DNA from: Candidatus Schekmanbacteria bacterium
GTDB taxonomy: Bacteria; CSSED10-310; JACPHN01
Length of the DNA stretch: 45,828 nt
Direction of reading: 5' to 3'
NCBI GenBank assembly: GCA_016188575.1
Contig: JACPHN010000083.1
Location: 1 to 45,828 of the forward strand
Positions within the stretch are counted from its first letter, which is position 1, and the number at the start of each line of letters is the position of its first letter. Of this stretch, positions 12,710 through 43,317 are shown piece after piece. A program made the position numbers and the translations under genes. The notes under the pieces are model-generated. The model had not been told where the DNA came from. It did no database searches and saw only the letters and a program-made list of their open reading frames with translations.

Positions 12710-14023
12710 TCAAAGGACGGTGCGCAAGAGCTCCTCGAGTGTGGGTCCACTCAGCTCTTCAAGCGAATACTGGACGCGATGCATGGGCTTGTCCACGGTA
12801 ATGAGCCGCGCCAGGTCGATAGGCGTGGCGACGATGACCGCATCGCAGTCGCAACGCCGAATTGTCGCCTCGAGATCGGCGACTTGCGCCTTGCCATAGC
12901 CCATGGCCGGCAAGACCGCGCGCACCTGGGAATACTTCTGGAAGACGTCGACGAGGCTTCCGACCGCGCACGGCCGCGGATCGACAATCTCGCTCGCGCC
13001 GAGCGTCCTGGCGGCCACCACGCCAGCTCCGAAGGACATGCCGCCGTGCGTGACCGTCGGTCCATCCTCGACCACGAGCACCCGCTTGCCAGCAAGCGCT
13101 GCGCCATTTTCGACGGTGACGGGCGACGCCGCGCGGATGATGACCGCCTTCGGGTTCACCCGGCGCACGTTCGCCTCCACCAGCGCCACGTCGGCTTCGG
13201 CCGCGGTGTCGACCTTATTGATGATGACGACCCCGGCGCGCCGGATGTTCACGGATCCCGGGTAGTACGTCAGCTCATGGCCCGCGCGATGCGGATCGGC
13301 AACGACGATCTCCAGCGTCGGAGCAAAGAACGGGGTGTCGTTGTTGCCGCCGTCCCAGATAATGACGTCGGCGGACTTCTCGGCCTCGGCGAGAATCGCC
13401 TGATAATCGACTCCGGCCATGACGATCGCGCCTTCGGCCAGATGCGGCTCGTACTCCTCGCGTTCCTCGATCGTGCAGTCGTGAGCGAGCAGGTCATCGT
13501 AGGTCGCGAATCTCTGCACCCGCTGTTTCACGAGATCGCCGTAGGGCATCGGATGGCGCACGACGACAACGCGTTTGCCCATCCCGTGCAGGATGCCTGC
13601 GATTTTCCGCGAAGTCTGGCTCTTTCCGCAGCCGGTGCGGACGGCGCACACCGAGATCACCGGGACCGTGGAGGGCAGCATCAGTTGCGCGGCCGAGGGG
13701 AGCTCGAAGGTGGCGCCGCGCGCGACGACGCTGGCGGCACGGTCCATGACATGGTCATGTGAGACGTCGCTGTAGGCAAAGACGACGCGCGTGATCCGTT
13801 CCGCCTCGATGAGGCTGGGGAGCTCGTCTTCGGCGTAGATGGGAATGCCGTGCGGATAGCCTGGGCCGGCGAGCGCGGCGGGGTACTTTCTACCGGCGAT
13901 TCCGGGAATTTGGGTCGCCGTGAAAGCGACGACGTGAACTTCGTCGCGACCGCGGAAGAGCGTATTGAAGACGTGGAAGTCCTTACCAGCGGCTCCCATG
14001 ATGACCGTACGAGTGCTTGTCAT
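12710..14023 (-). CDS. P-loop protein resembling cyclic 2,3-diphosphoglycerate synthetase (cPGS-like)
   Basis: A 437-aa ORF with a strong Shine-Dalgarno site (AAGGTGA). It has a Walker-A-like 'RTGCGKSQTS' and the overall length and layout recalled from cPGS family members. The family assignment is from memory and not certain. Confidence 0.4.
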   Translation of the reverse strand: MTSTRTVIMGAAGKDFHVFNTLFRGRDEVHVVAFTATQIPGIAGRKYPAALAGPGYPHGIPIYAEDELPSLIEAERITRVVFAYSDVSHDHVMDRAASVVARGATFELPSAAQLMLPSTVPVISVCAVRTGCGKSQTSRKIAGILHGMGKRVVVVRHPMPYGDLVKQRVQRFATYDDLLAHDCTIEEREEYEPHLAEGAIVMAGVDYQAILAEAEKSADVIIWDGGNNDTPFFAPTLEIVVADPHRAGHELTYYPGSVNIRRAGVVIINKVDTAAEADVALVEANVRRVNPKAVIIRAASPVTVENGAALAGKRVLVVEDGPTVTHGGMSFGAGVVAARTLGASEIVDPRPCAVGSLVDVFQKYSQVRAVLPAMGYGKAQVADLEATIRRCDCDAVIVATPIDLARLITVDKPMHRVQYSLEELSGPTLEELLRTVL

Positions 14024-14309
14024 GGCTCACCTTTTGTGCGAGAACGAGGTCAGCGTCTCGCGGCCGCGTCCAGAACGGCCGCGCGGCGCCCGCCGGAATC
14101 GGCGCCGTGCTCATAGCACGAAGTGGCGGTTGGCGCCAGCTTCGCCGCGCCGTGAGGCACGTGTCTGGACACATGTCACAGGTATTTCGCCACGGACTTC
14201 GCCGCACCCAGAGCTACACGGTCGCTCCGCAATCCCCCTCGCCAGGTGGCACGTCATTTGCTTTGTAGGAAGAGCATTCGTCATACTGGATCGTCGCCTG
14301 GCCCTGAGG

Positions 14310-15590
14310 ATGAACATGCCTCTCGCTTTTCCATGCGCTTCCGACCGATCTGCTGCCACGCGGGTAATCGCCTACCTGTCCGCATGGCTGGTGGCGGGGC
14401 TCGCCTCGCTGGCTTGCGCGCCGGCGCCGGGCCCCGCGGACGATCCTGTCGCGATCGCCGACCTGGTCGCCACTCCGCCGCTGGCGACTGCTAACCTCCT
14501 CTGGCAAGGTTCGGGCAGCAGCGGCGCCGAGTACAAGGTTACGGCAATGGCAGCAGCCAACGAGGGCGTCTTTGTCGCCACCAGCAACGTCTACTCCACG
14601 CGCCAGGCAAACCACTCCGCGGCCTTTCTCATCGGCTACGATGGCGTCGCACGCAGAGTCTACAGCGGCCCGGAGGAGTCGATCGGGCCTCTTTTCGGGC
14701 CATACATGACGGTCGAGCACGGTCCTTCCGTGTTGCAGCTTCGCAATGGACGCGTTCGCGAGGCCATCGCCATGCCCCAGGCGCCGCCAGGCACCCTGGG
14801 CTGCTCGGTCGATGCCGCCGATTGCAACTGGAGCATCGTCGGGGCACTTGCCTGGAACGGAGCCGCGGCGCTCACATACAACCTCGGCCCATACAAGCAG
14901 GGACAGTTCTTCGACTCCCCAAAGTTGCTGAGCATTGACGCCTCTCCGCCCTACCATTTCAGCCTGCGACGCTTGCAGGCGACGGTCCAGGGCGCCGCGT
15001 TTCACGATGGCGTACTGTGGCTGTCAACCTCCTTCGGCTGGACCGAAGACGACAACGCTCTGGTGCGGCTGAATGCCCCTAGCGCCGAGGCGTATTCGAT
15101 CTTGGAGGAAACCCGCGGCAGCGACGTGGGTGCTCTGCACTGGTTTGCCGGGTCGCTCTACGGCGGCGGCGGCCGGCGCATCGCGGAAGGCTCGTCGGCA
15201 CCACCGGCGGCGCTCTACGAGCTCAGCGATGACCGCTGGCGGGCGGTTCTTGATACCGGGTCAGAGACGGTCAACCAGTTGTTGGAGGCGTGCGGCAAGC
15301 TCTGGATCGCCACGACCAACCCGGACCGCGTGCTGGTGATGGATGCCTTCGGGGAAATCGCGGTCGTGGCCGAGCACCCGGATGAAGGAAACGAGGAAGA
15401 TCCGCGCTCGTTTGGTTCCACCTTCGACCTCAGGCTAGAGCGCGAGGGAAATGCCTGGCGCTGGCGCTACTATTGGGCCCGCTCGGATCTACATCGCGCC
15501 TACCTTTATGAGCTGGTGCCGCAGGCGAGCGAGGGGCTTTGCGAGCCGCTGCTGACCTCCGGATCGGGTATCGGCGAGCAGATCGATTGA
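14310..15590 (+). CDS. hypothetical secreted protein/lipoprotein
   Basis: Start placed at the internal ATG with a GAGGA Shine-Dalgarno site. The N-terminal hydrophobic signal 'VIAYLSAWLVAGLASLACAP' ends in a Cys. No recognisable domain. Confidence 0.5.
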   Translation: MNMPLAFPCASDRSAATRVIAYLSAWLVAGLASLACAPAPGPADDPVAIADLVATPPLATANLLWQGSGSSGAEYKVTAMAAANEGVFVATSNVYSTRQANHSAAFLIGYDGVARRVYSGPEESIGPLFGPYMTVEHGPSVLQLRNGRVREAIAMPQAPPGTLGCSVDAADCNWSIVGALAWNGAAALTYNLGPYKQGQFFDSPKLLSIDASPPYHFSLRRLQATVQGAAFHDGVLWLSTSFGWTEDDNALVRLNAPSAEAYSILEETRGSDVGALHWFAGSLYGGGGRRIAEGSSAPPAALYELSDDRWRAVLDTGSETVNQLLEACGKLWIATTNPDRVLVMDAFGEIAVVAEHPDEGNEEDPRSFGSTFDLRLEREGNAWRWRYYWARSDLHRAYLYELVPQASEGLCEPLLTSGSGIGEQID

Positions 15591-22385: not shown

Positions 22386-23348
22386 ATGCGAGTGAGGCGC
22401 GAGCATGGCGGCGGGACAATGCGGCGAGCGGTCGGGCTCTTGTTGGCCGCCGGCGCGGTCCCGCTTGTGCTCCTGTCGGTTGCGCACCGCTCCCGTGCGG
22501 AGGGCATCCCTCCGTCCCCCGAGACTTGCCGCTCCAGTATCGTCTACTACTATCCTGACAGCATCGGTCGGGAGCATGCAGAGATCGCGGGAAGAATCGT
22601 CAAGGTCGTCGAGGGGCCGTTGTCGGCGGCTCTGGGAAAGCACCTGACCGGGTACTATTTTTCTCGGCGCAAGGACCTGGTGGCACAAATAGCTCACTGC
22701 CAGCGGCTCGGCGCTTTCCCCGTGGGCGGCATGATGCACGCGGAGACGGCACTCGAGTACCGCAATTTATGGCACCTGGAGGTGCTGGGGTATTCGGTCG
22801 CGCTCTCGACAGGCGCGAAGCAGACGATCAACGTAGCGGTGCGGCGTGGTAGCGGCCTGCGACGCCTACAGGACCTGCGCGGCCGCACCTTGCTGACGCC
22901 GGAGTTCTGGGACGTGAAATCTCCGCGACCGACGACCATCGTCTTTGCCGGCGCGCTTTCCCTTGCGGACTTCGCCGAAGTAAACGAGACCCCCTCGTCG
23001 ATCAGCGCGCTCACGGGTCTGGCCTTTCGCCAGGCCGACGCGATCCTGGTATCTAACCGCGTGTTCGAGGTCTTCAAGGAGCGATCGCCGAAACTGTGGG
23101 CGACCATTCAGTCCATTCACGAGTCGCAGCCCATTCCACTGAATCTGCTGGTCGGCTTCGGCGCGCTAAGCGCGCGCGAGCGCGAGGTGCTCGAGAAGAC
23201 GTGGGAGATCATCAATACCTCGTCGGAAGGCCGGGAAGCGCTCGAGTATTTGCGGATCGACCACATGGCGGCCGGCGGCTGGTCGGACGTCTACGATGAA
23301 GATGATCTGGCCACGAGCGCAAAAGGCATCGACGAGGGTCACCTCTAA
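22386..23348 (+). CDS. secreted PhnD/SsuA-like (type-2 periplasmic binding fold) substrate-binding protein, paralogue A
   Basis: Signal peptide (possible start at 22419, MRRAVGLLLAAG). It aligns along its whole length with the 33113-34072 product ('IVYYYPDSIGREHAEIAGRI' vs 'IVYYFPDTVGKDLSKIASNF'; 'LVAQIAHCQRLGAFPVGGMMHAETALEYRNLWHLE' vs 'LVAHMTDTLARKQLPVFAAMHAEVALENRHLWNLE'). Confidence 0.55.
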   Translation: MRVRREHGGGTMRRAVGLLLAAGAVPLVLLSVAHRSRAEGIPPSPETCRSSIVYYYPDSIGREHAEIAGRIVKVVEGPLSAALGKHLTGYYFSRRKDLVAQIAHCQRLGAFPVGGMMHAETALEYRNLWHLEVLGYSVALSTGAKQTINVAVRRGSGLRRLQDLRGRTLLTPEFWDVKSPRPTTIVFAGALSLADFAEVNETPSSISALTGLAFRQADAILVSNRVFEVFKERSPKLWATIQSIHESQPIPLNLLVGFGALSAREREVLEKTWEIINTSSEGREALEYLRIDHMAAGGWSDVYDEDDLATSAKGIDEGHL

Positions 23349-23446: not shown

Positions 23447-25525
23447 ATGATCGGCGGTGCGTCCATCATGAGCGGTCGACATGGGAAAGGGGTGCTTTGC
23501 ATGAACAGCGCGGCGGGAACCGGTGTCGATGGCCGTGTCGGGACGGCGCCGTCTTGCCGCACTCCGCGGCAAAACCTGTGCGCCAGTGGACTGGGCACGG
23601 CGCTCGTCAGCCTCGCCGTCCTTTGCGCCGTCTGCGCGGTCACTCGCCTGGCGCCCGCCAGCGCCGTTGAGCCTTTTTTTGCTCCCGCCGTGCCGATGGG
23701 GACGCTTGCGATCCGGCTCCAACCGACCGCCGCCGTCGCGCCTGGAGCCCCGGTCCTGATTACCTTCGGAGTGCCATTCCCACGCGGTTCGCTCACGGCC
23801 GAAGCGATTGGCACGGTGCGCGTCCTGGCGGCTGGCGAGGAGCGCCCCGCCCATGTCGACGCGCTCACGCTCTGGCGCCACGCCACCAATGCGGCGGTCG
23901 ACGGCGCTTCGATCCGGGTCATCCGGGTCCAGCTCGAGCACGCGTTCGCGACGAGCTACCCCGCCTCCGAGGAGATCTCGCTCGAGTGGGGCCAGGCCCC
24001 ACGGACCAAGGACGTTGCGGAGCTCGCGGATCCCCGCACCGCCTGGCACCTCGTCACCGACGGCACGACCCCCTCCGGCGGCATCACGTTCGACGCCAGC
24101 CACCAGGTTTGGGAGCCCGACGTTTACGCCGTGCTCCCCAAGGCGTGGCTCTCCGCTAGCGGCCTCAAGACCCCGATGCAGCCGCTAGACGGCGGCGTCA
24201 GCGAGCTGCGCATGGAGCCCTCGGCCGCCGCCGCTTCCTACCCCGGCCATCTCGAGGCCGACCATGCTCAGGTCAACTTCTTCTACTCGATTATCAATGA
24301 CGACGACCTCCTCGTCGGGCCGGTCGATTATGACAATACCAATGCGTTCACCAGCGATTACGAACCGTGGCTCTACGATCGCGCGATGGCACTGTACGTG
24401 GGCTACCTGCGGAGCGGATTCTTCCGGTTCTTGCGCGAGGCCGTCCGCAACGCCGAGTTCTATCGAACGAAGATCTACACGCCTGCGGCGTGCGATGACG
24501 GGCCCTGTGTCGGCAGCTTCTCGATGAAGAATCCCGATCCGGCGGCGGGCTGGCATGACGAAAAATACTCCTACAACGAATCTCTTGCCATGACGTACTG
24601 GCTCACCGGCGACGCCGCCGCCCTGCCGTACGTCGAGTACGTGACGCGGATCTACGACGGGGTGTCCACGGTGGCCTCCTCCAGTGCTTTTACCGAGCGG
24701 CACGCGGGGCTCAAGTTGATGTCCCGCGTCGTTGCCTACGAGGTTACCGGCGGGGAGCAATATAGAGATGAGATGGCGCAGATCATCGCGGATTTCCGAG
24801 CCGGGCAGACCAACCCGTACGGTGGCCTCGCCGACGGCGGGCTGTGGCACTCGATCGCGGCGCACGAAGGGGTCGAATCGACGGAGCCGATTACCTCACC
24901 TTGGATGTCGGCCCTGATCGGCGACGCGGCGGCTCGGGCGTATCTGGTGAGCGAGCACGTGGACGCCGCGCGGCTCATCATCGAGCTCGCGACTCACCAG
25001 TGCGGCGCTGGCGGGTACTGGACGACGATTCGTGACGGTGAGAATGGGCTAGACGAACAAAGCGGTGAAGCTCCGCTGTTCTTCCCTCACTACCTGGCAA
25101 CGCGAGACGGGCTCGGCTGGAGCGACGACTTCAACCCCTATACCGATTACGAACATTCCTTCGACGTGGCGGGCACGGTCGCCTGGGGGACGTACTTCGC
25201 GCGGTTGAGCGGCGAGGCACAGGCGAGTGAGCAGCTTCGGACGTGTGCGGAGGACCTCTATACGACCTTCAGCCACACGATCACCTACTGGACCCGACCC
25301 GGTGGGCCGGCCGCGAACAAGGACGGATTCCGGGTCGTACCCCACCGCAAGTACTCGTGGTGGTTCAAGAACGCCAGCGGTTTTCAGTGGGCGATGGCGA
25401 GCTCGGAGGGGCCGGCGGTCCCGATCGCCTACCCATTTGCCGCAAGCGTCGTCCTGGGCCTGACGGTGTGTCGGCGTCGCGGTGGGGTGGCCGGCCGCCG
25501 GTCGGCGAGTGGCGGCGACCGCTGA
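23447..25525 (+). CDS. large hypothetical secreted protein with C-terminal hydrophobic anchor plus Arg-rich tail
   Basis: N-terminal signal 'LGTALVSLAVLCAVCAVTRLAPASA'. The C-terminus '...VPIAYPFAASVVLGLTVCRRRGG...' resembles a C-terminal sorting/anchor signal (TM helix followed by RRR). The start is uncertain (candidate Mets at 23447, 23468 and 23501). Confidence 0.5.
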   Translation: MIGGASIMSGRHGKGVLCMNSAAGTGVDGRVGTAPSCRTPRQNLCASGLGTALVSLAVLCAVCAVTRLAPASAVEPFFAPAVPMGTLAIRLQPTAAVAPGAPVLITFGVPFPRGSLTAEAIGTVRVLAAGEERPAHVDALTLWRHATNAAVDGASIRVIRVQLEHAFATSYPASEEISLEWGQAPRTKDVAELADPRTAWHLVTDGTTPSGGITFDASHQVWEPDVYAVLPKAWLSASGLKTPMQPLDGGVSELRMEPSAAAASYPGHLEADHAQVNFFYSIINDDDLLVGPVDYDNTNAFTSDYEPWLYDRAMALYVGYLRSGFFRFLREAVRNAEFYRTKIYTPAACDDGPCVGSFSMKNPDPAAGWHDEKYSYNESLAMTYWLTGDAAALPYVEYVTRIYDGVSTVASSSAFTERHAGLKLMSRVVAYEVTGGEQYRDEMAQIIADFRAGQTNPYGGLADGGLWHSIAAHEGVESTEPITSPWMSALIGDAAARAYLVSEHVDAARLIIELATHQCGAGGYWTTIRDGENGLDEQSGEAPLFFPHYLATRDGLGWSDDFNPYTDYEHSFDVAGTVAWGTYFARLSGEAQASEQLRTCAEDLYTTFSHTITYWTRPGGPAANKDGFRVVPHRKYSWWFKNASGFQWAMASSEGPAVPIAYPFAASVVLGLTVCRRRGGVAGRRSASGGDR

Positions 25526-36831: not shown

Positions 36832-38514
36832 ATGGAAATCGGCTCGTCGACCTCGCTCTCCCCAACCATTCCCGACACCTCGGCAACCGGCACGAGCGAC
36901 ACCGCCACCGGCGGAGCGGCCAAGGAGGCCAGTCAGACGGCCTCCTCAGCCGCCGCCGGCGAGGTGCAAGAGACCCCTGATGCGGAGCCTGTTGCCGGCG
37001 ACGAACCCGCCGTCGAGCCAGTTGACTCGTACTCGACCGAGGCAGTCGGCGTCTGGGATCGCCTGACGGGTACCGCCTCCGCCGGCGAGGCCGGCGAACG
37101 TGGTGAAGCCGATTCGTCCCTTTCCGACGTCATCTCCCGCCTGCGGCAGAGCCCCCCGGCGCCCTCCCCGCTCGCCGCGCCCGCCAGCGACTCCGATCTC
37201 ATCTCGGCCAACGTCCTGCCGCCCGCCTCCCGCAACTACGGAGACCTCGTGCAATCGGTGGTCGGCGCTGACACTCAAGCCGCTGCGCTCGGACCGGACG
37301 GCATCATCAAGTCGCACGAAAACTGGGGAGGGCTGAACCTCAAGGAGGAAGAGCTCGGTCAGGACCTGGCGAAGCGCCTGAAGGGAGATCCCGCGGGCCA
37401 GTCCGGGACCGCTACCGGAGTGCTCGACAAGCTGGACAAGGGCGACGCCAGCCAGGTCAGCCACGAGATGTACAAGAACATGTCGAAGGAGGAGATGGTC
37501 AAGCTCGCGAGGACCGAACCAGGCCGAACCGCCCTTACCAAGATGAAGGACAAGCTCGACCCCTCGGACAAGGAGCAAGATGCGGCGGCTGTCGAGATCA
37601 AGAAGGCCATCGACGAAGGCAGGGCGCGCGAGGAGGAGGCCAAGGACCTGACGCCACCCGAGCTCAAGCCCGGAAAATCACACCACGAGCAGACCAAGGA
37701 CGGAGCCACCGTAGGCACCTTCTACACCAAGCCGAACGTCACCCAGATGCCTCTGGACAAATTCAAGACCGGCTCTGTCGAGGAAGCCAAGAAGCAAATC
37801 GATGACACCAAGGCCAAGCAGGAGGCCTTCTGCGCAGACATGCGCGCCAAGCTCGGCGACAACGTCGATGTCAAGAATCCACCCAGCCTCGACCACGTCA
37901 AGCAGTATATGCAGAAGGTCGCCGATGAAGGGGGGACCGACAAGGTCAGGGAGAAACACGGCGAGTACCTGAGCACCTTCTACGCCCATTCAGGCGAGGG
38001 CGTAACTTGGGGCGCCGGCAGGAAGCTCGCGGAAAGCGATCAGCTCAAAGCCGGTCTGCAGGGGCAGCCGACCCTCAAAGACGGTCGCAAGGTGATCGAC
38101 TGCGAGGGTTACTCAGCGCTGACCGAGAATATCCTGGGCGGTCTGAAGGACAAGCGTAACAAGAACCAGCCGATGTTCGACATCACACACGCATCGACAT
38201 CGAACCATATCATTACGGGCGTGTTTCCGCGCGACAAGAATGCAGGCCAACCGTTTTTCGTGAACAACAATGTTCCCAGTGAGATTACAAGAGAGGACTA
38301 CGCGGCGGCGGCGGGCTATGCGAAGAAGCAGGGCCGGGGCAAGCCCTCGCAGGACGACATCATGCGTGCGGTGGCGATTCGGGGCGCCCGCGAGCGCAAG
38401 GACATCGAACCGACCGCGGAAACGCCGGTCCAAACAGCAGGACGGATGTCGGGGATGACGGAGAGTCCAAAGACAGTAAAGAAGCTCCTCGAGGAGTTGC
38501 AAATTCCCGAATAA
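36832..38514 (+). CDS. hypothetical acidic Lys/Glu-rich protein with disordered S/T/A/G-rich N-terminus and C-terminal Cys/His module (possible papain-like/transglutaminase-like fold)
   Basis: GGAGG Shine-Dalgarno site 6 nt upstream and no signal peptide. The composition is unusual for this genome. The C-terminal 'IDCEGYSALTENILGG' ... 'FDITHASTSNHIITGVF' gives a Cys...His spacing of about 45 aa, reminiscent of NlpC/P60 or transglutaminase-like cores. Confidence 0.5.
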   Translation: MEIGSSTSLSPTIPDTSATGTSDTATGGAAKEASQTASSAAAGEVQETPDAEPVAGDEPAVEPVDSYSTEAVGVWDRLTGTASAGEAGERGEADSSLSDVISRLRQSPPAPSPLAAPASDSDLISANVLPPASRNYGDLVQSVVGADTQAAALGPDGIIKSHENWGGLNLKEEELGQDLAKRLKGDPAGQSGTATGVLDKLDKGDASQVSHEMYKNMSKEEMVKLARTEPGRTALTKMKDKLDPSDKEQDAAAVEIKKAIDEGRAREEEAKDLTPPELKPGKSHHEQTKDGATVGTFYTKPNVTQMPLDKFKTGSVEEAKKQIDDTKAKQEAFCADMRAKLGDNVDVKNPPSLDHVKQYMQKVADEGGTDKVREKHGEYLSTFYAHSGEGVTWGAGRKLAESDQLKAGLQGQPTLKDGRKVIDCEGYSALTENILGGLKDKRNKNQPMFDITHASTSNHIITGVFPRDKNAGQPFFVNNNVPSEITREDYAAAAGYAKKQGRGKPSQDDIMRAVAIRGARERKDIEPTAETPVQTAGRMSGMTESPKTVKKLLEELQIPE

Positions 38515-41484: not shown

Positions 41485-43050
41485 TTACCAGAGTTTGAAC
41501 GCGTCCACGACGCTGTCGATGACGCTCGCAGCGCCGGCAGCGATCGTGTCGGCCGTAGTCTCGATGGCGTTGGCCGCGGACTGCACCGCTCCCGCCACTC
41601 CTTGCGCCAGGTTGCCGGCATCGCGGACGGCGGCACCGGGGTCGAGCGCGTACTCGAGACCCTTGCCGGCGAGGTCCAGCGCCCCGCCGATAGCGGCGTT
41701 GGCAATGGCCTTGACGTCCACCTCGACACCCCAGCCCGCGCCGAACCCGTAGCCTACGGCGGCGCCACCACCGAAACCGAACGAAATTTTGCCGTCGTCG
41801 TAGCCGAGGTGCACGCCGCCTTCCGCGCCGGCACCGGCCCAGGCACCCGCGTGTCCCGACAAGGTGACGAAGTCGCCGATACCTACCTGCCCTTCGGCCT
41901 CCGCTTTCACACCGGCAAACGCGGTTCCATAGATATCCGCCCCGGCGCGCGGTGGGTTGATCGTGGCGTTGACCTCGGCGTGGCCTTCGGCGAGCGCCGA
42001 AGCCTCGACGCGCACCTTGCCGCTGCCGTTGATATCGAGGCGCTCGCCGCCGATTTCGACGCCTGCCGTGCGAAAGTCAGCTCCCGCCTCCGCGGACGCG
42101 GAGACACCCACGCGCGCGTCTGCTCGCGCACGCAGCCCCGTGGCGTCCAGCGTGGCGCTTCCGGTCGCGTCGCCGAACGCTTCAACACCGGCATTCGCGT
42201 AGTAGTTGGCGGTGCCCAGCGCATTCTCCAACCGCCCCTGGGTGGATACCATCGCCGCCGCACTGGCGCCGACTTGCCCCTGAGCGTTGAGCCCGGTTGC
42301 ATCCAGACTGACGCTGCCCTCGCCGCCATAGCGCAGGTCGGCGCGCGCCTCGGACGTGTTCGTGGCTGTTCCGAGAACCGTTTCCAGACGACTGTCCGAG
42401 CGCGCCGAGGCGCCGAGCGTCCCCTGGAACCGCCCCTCTGCCTCTGCTCCCGCAATGCCGATCTTGGCCCGGCCGTCGGCCTCGAAGTCGCCGCCCACGC
42501 GCGTCTGGGTCTGGTTGTCGAAGGTGCCGAAGTCGCCAATCTGGCGATGAAGCTGATACGCGCGGTAGTCTCCAAAATGGCTCTGCGTGGACCCACGCGT
42601 CTCGGCCCGCAGCCCTGTCTGTTGCTCGAGTGCCTCGAGACTCTTGTCGACGCCCCCGAGGACACCCTGGATTGCCTCCGTGGGCGCGCCGAGGATCATG
42701 TTCTGAACCGTATCCACGGGATTGTCGCGCAATCCCTGAGCGATCGCTGCCAGATCCTGCTGGAGCGCCGCCGGATCGAATTCGGCGTTGCCGAGAAACG
42801 CCGAAAAGTCCGGTGGCTGGCCGGAAGCGACCGAGGTCAGTAGATGCTGAATACCACCAAACGGGTGGCTGCCTAGATCCTGAAAAAGATCGATGATGGC
42901 GGACCCGGCGCGCGTCGTTGCGGCGCGCATTTCGCGGTCCTTGTCGGTCGCCGGGTCGTGTATTTGCGCTTCGCGGGTGCCCTGCGCCTGCCACGCCTGA
43001 GCGTACTGCTGCGAGGTGTGGTCACCCCACGAAATCGTTCCGTTGGACAT
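41485..43050 (-). CDS. hypothetical Gly/Ala-rich repeat protein ending in an aromatic residue (...DAFKLW)
   Basis: Start at 'MSNGTISWGD' with a GGAGG Shine-Dalgarno site. The central region has ~40-aa degenerate repeats ('SVSLDATGLNAQGQVGASAAA' / 'SATLDATGLRARADARVGVSASAEAG') with an alternating G/A/V pattern. No signal peptide. Confidence 0.5.
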   Translation of the reverse strand: MSNGTISWGDHTSQQYAQAWQAQGTREAQIHDPATDKDREMRAATTRAGSAIIDLFQDLGSHPFGGIQHLLTSVASGQPPDFSAFLGNAEFDPAALQQDLAAIAQGLRDNPVDTVQNMILGAPTEAIQGVLGGVDKSLEALEQQTGLRAETRGSTQSHFGDYRAYQLHRQIGDFGTFDNQTQTRVGGDFEADGRAKIGIAGAEAEGRFQGTLGASARSDSRLETVLGTATNTSEARADLRYGGEGSVSLDATGLNAQGQVGASAAAMVSTQGRLENALGTANYYANAGVEAFGDATGSATLDATGLRARADARVGVSASAEAGADFRTAGVEIGGERLDINGSGKVRVEASALAEGHAEVNATINPPRAGADIYGTAFAGVKAEAEGQVGIGDFVTLSGHAGAWAGAGAEGGVHLGYDDGKISFGFGGGAAVGYGFGAGWGVEVDVKAIANAAIGGALDLAGKGLEYALDPGAAVRDAGNLAQGVAGAVQSAANAIETTADTIAAGAASVIDSVVDAFKLW

Positions 43051-43317
43051 CTCTACCTCCACCCAGATCGAACGGTGTCGGGTTTCTTCGGTGCTCGTAA
43101 CAATCGTATAGGGGATTGTTGCCCATGGCAAGGTTATCGCGTGTTACCGCGAAATCGTTTCTCAACGGCTCACCGGGTGCTTGACAGGGCCGGCTCGGGC
43201 TGCGGTGTAGTCGAACCAGCGCTGCTGCGATCGATGAAACGCCAAGGTGGCAGCACCGGCCTGAATCCACCGCCTGGTCGAGTGCAGGCTGCGCGGAATG
43301 CGCATCACGAAGACCCT

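Follow-up and report, generated by a model that had tools for sequence, protein, structure and literature searches.

A protein encoded beside a bacterial major vault protein homologue has a predicted transglutaminase-like domain and is probably a modular effector-type protein

The genome of Candidatus Schekmanbacteria bacterium (contig JACPHN010000083.1, assembly GCA_016188575.1), of which a stretch of 45,828 nucleotides (hereafter the window) was analysed, encodes a major vault protein (MVP) homologue and, immediately downstream of it, a protein of unusual composition annotated as 'hypothetical protein HYV63_13400, Candidatus Schekmanbacteria' by NCBI. This arrangement raises the question of whether HYV63_13400 is a cargo or partner of a bacterial vault-like shell, as was suggested in an earlier model-generated reading of the same DNA (the original prediction), or a protein of some other kind that happens to be encoded beside MVP. 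The evidence presented here indicates that HYV63_13400 is probably an orphan, non-Sec, modular protein of the effector or toxin type, whose warhead represents a new family of transglutaminase-like enzymes with a Cys-His-Asn triad, and that it most likely stands beside MVP incidentally.

The coding sequence of HYV63_13400 (36832..38514, + strand) is complete and specifies 560 amino acids (59.6 kDa, pI 5.15); the open reading frame (ORF) that had been called there and the NCBI gene yield a protein of the same length and sequence. Its ATG is the first start codon downstream of an in-frame stop, and GGAGG is found at 36821-36825, 7 nt before the ATG. The G+C content of its third codon positions (GC3, 0.79) is like that of the neighbouring genes (0.76-0.85), which indicates a native coding sequence. 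Horizontal acquisition was rejected on this basis, the high AT skew being due to codons for Lys, Glu and Asp.

HYV63_13400 consists of three parts: an N-terminal region rich in Ser, Thr and Ala, a helical module (module A), and a C-terminal module (module B). The N-terminal region (residues 1-138; 36832..37245, + strand) has a composition dominated by S/T/A/G/P/D/E and is predicted to be disordered; no homologue among the matches of an exhaustive HMMER search aligns with it, and no hydrophobic leader of the Sec type was found in the first 40 amino acids, where the highest hydropathy of any 12 residues is 0.4. The predicted local distance difference test score (pLDDT) is below 50 across residues 1-170 of a single-sequence AlphaFold2 model, which for the protein as a whole is uninformative (pLDDT 44.7). 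Residues 1-160 are rich in A/S/G/P/T/D and have a pI of 4.05, and residues 161-380 contain 14.1% Lys, 10.0% Glu and 9.5% Asp, compared with 1.6-4.2% Lys in neighbouring proteins. The original description of a disordered S/T/A/G/E N-terminus followed by a Lys/Glu-rich helical region is borne out by these residue counts, pI values and pLDDT scores.

No Pfam or NCBIfam family matches HYV63_13400, and the full-length protein matches no chain among PDB sequences even at E ≤ 10. Neither HYV63_13400 nor MVP has a match in PADLOC or PHROGs, and PADLOC has none for the genes that flank them either; an assignment to a defence system was rejected on these grounds. With the full protein as query, a word-indexed search for homologues returned HYV63_13400 alone, and similar searches found five proteins with a profile of module B and none with a profile of module A. 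The family came to light only with an exhaustive HMMER scan covering 1.84 billion cluster representatives, which yielded 93 proteins at E ≤ 1e-3, 55 of them at E ≤ 1e-10. Local iterative searches divide the matches into two independent modules, B in 75 representatives and A in 22, which occur together in only four proteins (HYV63_13400, P0002, P0043 and P0063).

Module B (residues ~315-495; 37774..38316, + strand) carries the putative catalytic residues. In an alignment of 75 sequences, Cys424 is conserved in 72 of 73, His459 in 74 of 74, Asp423 in 71 of 74, and Asn479 in 66 of 74 (with Thr in six others), and His386, Trp393, Arg419 and Gln330 are nearly invariant. The first four are the only invariant columns of a 30-sequence domain alignment (A2), the members of which are 21-38% identical to HYV63_13400; His459 is invariant in the full-length alignment (A1) as well. 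The original prediction of a Cys/His core of papain-like or transglutaminase-like type was founded on the motif 'DCEGYSAL', which begins at residue 423, and a second segment, 'THASTSNHIITGVF', at residue 452. It stands with respect to the cysteine and the class of enzyme, but the histidine has to be reassigned: His453 of 'THAS' is not conserved, and the conserved residue is His459 of 'NHIITGVF'.

An AlphaFold2 model of residues 288-521, built from a 64-sequence alignment, has high confidence (pLDDT 95.4; predicted template modelling score, pTM, 0.92). The predicted nucleophile, Cys424 (Asp423-Cys424 being encoded at 38098..38103, + strand, as verified codon by codon), occupies the first position of model helix 137-148, which corresponds to residues 424-435 of the protein. 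The predicted general base, His459 (38206..38208, + strand), is model position 172 at the start of a beta-strand, just ahead of positions 173-179, and the predicted third member of the triad, Asn479 (38266..38268, + strand), is model position 192 at the end of the beta-strand that follows, directly after positions 188-191. As modelled, the core has the canonical papain/transglutaminase layout with the nucleophile at the N-terminus of a helix, and the residues follow the order Cys-His-Asx with a spacing of 35/20; from this topology, the juxtaposition of the three residues may be inferred. The overall fold of the model is similar to solved transglutaminase-like and papain-like structures, with vasohibins as the best structural match.

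The relationship of module B to known members of this superfamily is remote. A Foldseek search with the model found nothing significant in the PDB or BFVD, the A2 profile had zero matches among PDB sequences, and HYV63_13400 has no significant match to the Pfam models Transglut_core, BTLCP, NlpC-P60 or Vasohibin. A Pfam scan of 64 homologues gave a single faint match to the Rad4 transglutaminase-like domain (E 0.048). At the level of sequence, no part of HYV63_13400 resembles a solved structure in the PDB searches. Module B therefore is best described, on the strength of its predicted fold, as a highly diverged and undescribed family within the transglutaminase-like/papain-like cysteine-enzyme superfamily. 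The only matches of alignment A1 in a PDB profile search, to pentatricopeptide and tetratricopeptide repeat (PPR/TPR) proteins, were rejected as artefacts arising from the N-termini of the homologues. The largest subfamily of module B proteins (P0015, P0016, P0020, P0021, P0024, P0026 and others; ~500-550 amino acids) has a different conserved N-terminal domain of ~270 amino acids, characterized by 'MEVAMAATVFRDLQ..GYI...AKLSD.PP', behind which come an EF-hand-like loop ('D.D.NGKLDLDL') and a single hairpin of the TPR/PPR type; HYV63_13400 lacks this domain.

The conservation of module B makes it highly improbable that HYV63_13400, as a K/E-rich protein without enzymatic function, serves in structure or scaffolding and has its Cys/His motif by chance. 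Such a role would agree with the unusual composition of the protein, more than 40% of which is predicted to be disordered or simple helix, but not with the invariance of four putative active-site residues among sequences only 21-38% identical, nor with a confidently predicted globular fold that places the nucleophile at the N-terminus of a helix. In the mechanism proposed for an enzyme, Cys424 at the helix N-terminus would be activated by His459, which Asn479 would orient, so that module B would act on a protein substrate by attacking a peptide, isopeptide or amide bond or by acyl transfer.

Whether such an enzyme would act within its own cell or elsewhere is addressed by module A (residues ~139-264; 37246..37623, + strand; hmmsearch E-value 5.9e-44), a helical, K/E-rich domain with the consensus 'LIKxHTxWGGLNLxEExLGxDL...DRDDVA...SDxQLxxxAxTxxGRxxL' (alignment A3). 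Helices are predicted at residues 172-273 with pLDDT of 63-90 in the single-sequence AlphaFold2 model, and module A frequently occurs in tandem copies among its 22 representatives. It has no relative in Pfam or the PDB. A match of the module A profile to transcription activator-like (TAL) effectors in the PDB (1e-24) was rejected as an artefact of summing over repeats, which contributed only 3-5 bits apiece at individual E-values above 200. The module A segment 'LSDEQLRKLAKTEDGRAVL' resembles a single TAL-effector repeat, 'LTPEQVVAIASHDGGKQALE'.

Several proteins combine module A with domains associated with secretion or injection. Module A is fused to eCIS_core/DUF4157, a recognised marker of toxins associated with extracellular contractile injection systems (eCIS), in P0079 and P0082; to WXG100 in P0081; to LysM, together with a weak, sub-threshold match to Ntox28, in P0060; to DUF4781 in P0069; and to C-termini of the HExxH type in P0070 and P0089. 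P0082, a protein of 1040 amino acids from a JGI contig, has eCIS_core and module A; its gene lies within a contractile-injection operon, with tube genes (Phage_T4_gp19 and CIS_tube) on one side of it and genes for the Phage_base_V baseplate hub and GPW_gp25 on the other. The gene for P0079 directly follows another eCIS_core gene (locus L103). As in modular toxins, module A is combined with alternative C-terminal enzymatic domains, an architecture of the swappable-warhead kind.

Because module A is common to proteins with other enzymatic C-termini or with markers of contractile injection and type VII secretion, a role of the effector or toxin type is considered most likely for HYV63_13400. Delivery would follow a non-Sec route, and module B would be one interchangeable warhead. 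A Sec-type hydrophobic leader is absent from all 93 homologous proteins. About ten of them (P0002, P0005, P0043, P0062, P0063, P0073, P0077, P0084, P0055 and P0004) share the N-terminus 'MGLLDS[IV]K/RS' despite having different C-termini; this leader, which HYV63_13400 lacks, fits the eukaryotic N-myristoylation consensus MGxxxS and may be a signal for delivery or targeting. With vasohibins as the best structural neighbours of module B and the MGxxxS leader in some of its relatives, members of the family are possible eukaryote-directed effectors, and could be bacterial proteins that act on eukaryotic cytoskeletal or other host proteins. The eukaryote-like nature of vaults, taken together with the vasohibin match, makes a eukaryote-directed role an attractive speculation.

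The genomic surroundings weigh against a delivered effector. Genes for module B proteins are solitary and scattered among housekeeping genes, mostly with a convergent gene downstream, and no immunity-like partner or secretion apparatus was found beside the family genes that were examined. Within the window there is no eCIS_core, WXG100 or LysM domain and no gene of a contractile injection system, type VI secretion system (T6SS) or type VII secretion system (T7SS), so that HYV63_13400 can be linked to eCIS only indirectly, through the presence of module A in other proteins. No adjacent immunity gene was found; the gene downstream of HYV63_13400 encodes a convergent family 2 glycosyltransferase (GT2), and homologues likewise precede convergent or unrelated genes.

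These surroundings are what would be expected if HYV63_13400 were a regulatory cysteine enzyme, be it a protease, transglutaminase, deamidase or acyltransferase, that stays in the cytoplasm or otherwise acts on its own cell, modifying that cell's proteins and not being exported, an alternative that is plausible yet distinctly less probable than delivery. The evidence from the fold and the triad is identical for both; superfamily members such as arylamine N-acetyltransferases (NATs) are intracellular, and the bacterial protease CPR-C4 has no known need for a partner. However, the long, disordered and extremely variable N-termini are typical of delivered proteins, and neither the shuffling of module A with eCIS_core, WXG100 and LysM nor the presence of one short leader on proteins with different C-termini would be expected of an enzyme that stays at home. 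An exported modular effector or toxin is therefore the favoured interpretation. The analysis establishes that the gene is real, the boundaries of its domains, its family and invariant residues, its class of fold and the absence of co-conservation with MVP, whereas the catalytic activity, the export and the target of HYV63_13400 are inferred.

The identification of the upstream gene as MVP (34192..36714, + strand) is confirmed by Pfam matches to MVP_shoulder (6.9e-30) and Vault_3 (7.6e-9). HYV63_13400 is indeed co-oriented with it, at a distance that had been given as 118 nt and is corrected here to 117 nt, as the MVP stop codon ends at 36714 and the ATG of HYV63_13400 begins at 36832. On the + strand of the spacer (36715..36831), promoter-like and terminator-like sites were sought and none was found, and the predicted RNA fold of the spacer is no better than that of shuffled sequence (z = 0.29), which makes co-transcription of the two genes possible in this genome. 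The only promoter-like site is upstream of MVP, a sigma-70-like match (TTGCCA-17-TAGGAT) at 34081-34109 on the + strand, 83 nt 5' of the MVP start.

These features, and the precedent of enzymes in eukaryotic vaults (PARP4, which associates through its MINT domain, and TEP1), are what favour a vault cargo or partner that is co-expressed with MVP and packaged into or acting on the vault-like shell, perhaps by means of the acidic N-terminus or module A. If so, the gene pair might be conserved, as the original prediction itself proposed to check, and the result was negative in both directions. Neither module A nor module B was detected by tblastn, phmmer or profile hidden Markov models (HMMs) at any of 72 prokaryotic MVP loci (L001-L072) from species-representative genomes of Myxococcota, Bacteroidota, Chloroflexota, Riflebacteria, Candidate Phyla Radiation (CPR) phyla (Saccharibacteria and Paceibacterota) and one archaeal metagenome-assembled genome; at least 1.7 kb of sequence was available downstream of MVP at 59 of these loci and upstream at 57. 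When 883 flanking ORFs were clustered, none of the gene families located within 3.5 kb of MVP was common to more than five of the 72 loci. Conversely, 25 loci of module B and five further contexts were examined, of which ~11 are distinct and have at least 3 kb of flanking sequence, and MVP was present at none of those ~11; this includes the locus of P0002, the closest relative with both modules, where 3.5 kb is visible upstream.

With regard to a MINT-like domain for interaction with MVP, full-length HYV63_13400 showed no sequence similarity to a PDB chain at E ≤ 10; the module B profile likewise had no PDB match at that threshold, and the only match of the module A profile was the TAL artefact. 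The other contexts of module A are injection and secretion proteins, not neighbours of MVP. A vault cargo or partner is accordingly very unlikely, and the position of the gene in this one genome is the sole link of HYV63_13400 to vaults. Equally slim are the chances of a compromise in which an effector-like enzyme was recruited beside MVP in this Schekmanbacteria lineage, shares a transcript with it, and either is packaged into the vault-like shell or processes it; a client of a prokaryotic vault would, if this is true, be described for the first time. Partner genes are not reported in a published survey of MVPs from bacteria, and in the genomes compared the prokaryotic MVP has the appearance of a solitary gene, with no cargo encoded in an operon with it.

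The window also encodes a P-type ATPase, a sigma-54 activator, an OTCase, an M20 peptidase, solute-binding proteins, the GT2 glycosyltransferase, a methyltransferase and TPR proteins. Two paralogous periplasmic binding proteins of the Phosphonate-bd-like type are encoded at 22386-23348 and 33113-34072 (both + strand), the second directly upstream of MVP. An acidic protein of 548 amino acids (41485-43131, - strand) that is rich in Ala (17.5%) and Gly (14.6%) matches nothing in Pfam or PHROGs, and its one PADLOC match, to GajB, is at the level of chance. Long ORFs of high GC3 without a Pfam match are located at 23447-25525 (+ strand), 12710-14023 (- strand) and 13965-15590 (+ strand), the latter two of which overlap by 59 nt at their 5' ends.

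Two unannotated protein modules are defined by this analysis. Module B, known only from metagenomes, comprises ~75 clusters at 50% identity, with a transglutaminase-like fold that is modelled with confidence and the invariant signature Asp-Cys…His…Asn; module A is a helical domain that travels with markers of contractile injection and type VII secretion. Both are candidates for inclusion in domain databases and in catalogues of effectors and toxins. For vault biology, the absence of a conserved neighbour across 72 prokaryotic MVP loci is a useful negative result, which suggests that bacterial MVP, unlike encapsulins, has no operon-encoded cargo, and HYV63_13400 should not be cited as a bacterial vault cargo.

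Among known systems, the only likeness of HYV63_13400 to the eukaryotic vault partners PARP4 (with its MINT domain) and TEP1 is the association of an enzyme gene with MVP, here by adjacency; the class of enzyme is different, and there is neither PDB similarity nor co-conservation with MVP. The vasohibins VASH1 and VASH2 are tubulinyl-Tyr carboxypeptidases and transglutaminase-like cysteine proteases with 9-13% identity to module B, a relationship that HMMER profiles and Foldseek do not detect. The triad of VASH1 (C169/H204/S221) has a spacing of 35/17 (PMC4866520), compared with 35/20 in HYV63_13400, and the third position is occupied by Asn in HYV63_13400 but in VASH by Ser or the backbone carbonyl of a Leu; furthermore, no SVBP-like partner is evident, and the bacterial source has no tubulin substrate of its own. 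CPR-C4, with a triad spacing of 32/22, was confirmed to be a bacterial protease after a similarly remote structural inference (PMC9108980), which demonstrates that distant vasohibin-like proteins of bacteria can be active proteases. LapG/BTLCP, TglA, TgpA, CPR-C4 and the Legionella effectors Ceg10 and RavJ have the same fold class and the same Cys-His-(Asp/Asn) order as module B, and several of these bacterial enzymes are secreted proteins or translocated effectors. The validated toxin EAT14, which combines DUF4157, LysM and a transglutaminase-like domain, shows toxicity towards both E. coli and yeast (PMC11297309). In contrast to toxins of the EAT14 type, HYV63_13400 has no eCIS_core, LysM or WXG100 domain and no eCIS, T6SS, T7SS or immunity gene nearby, and it does not match the Pfam family Transglut_prok to which the enzymatic domain of EAT14 belongs. 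Nevertheless, HYV63_13400 follows the same logic as eCIS-associated and polymorphic toxins, in which a variable N-terminal region for delivery or adaptation is joined to an interchangeable C-terminal enzyme.
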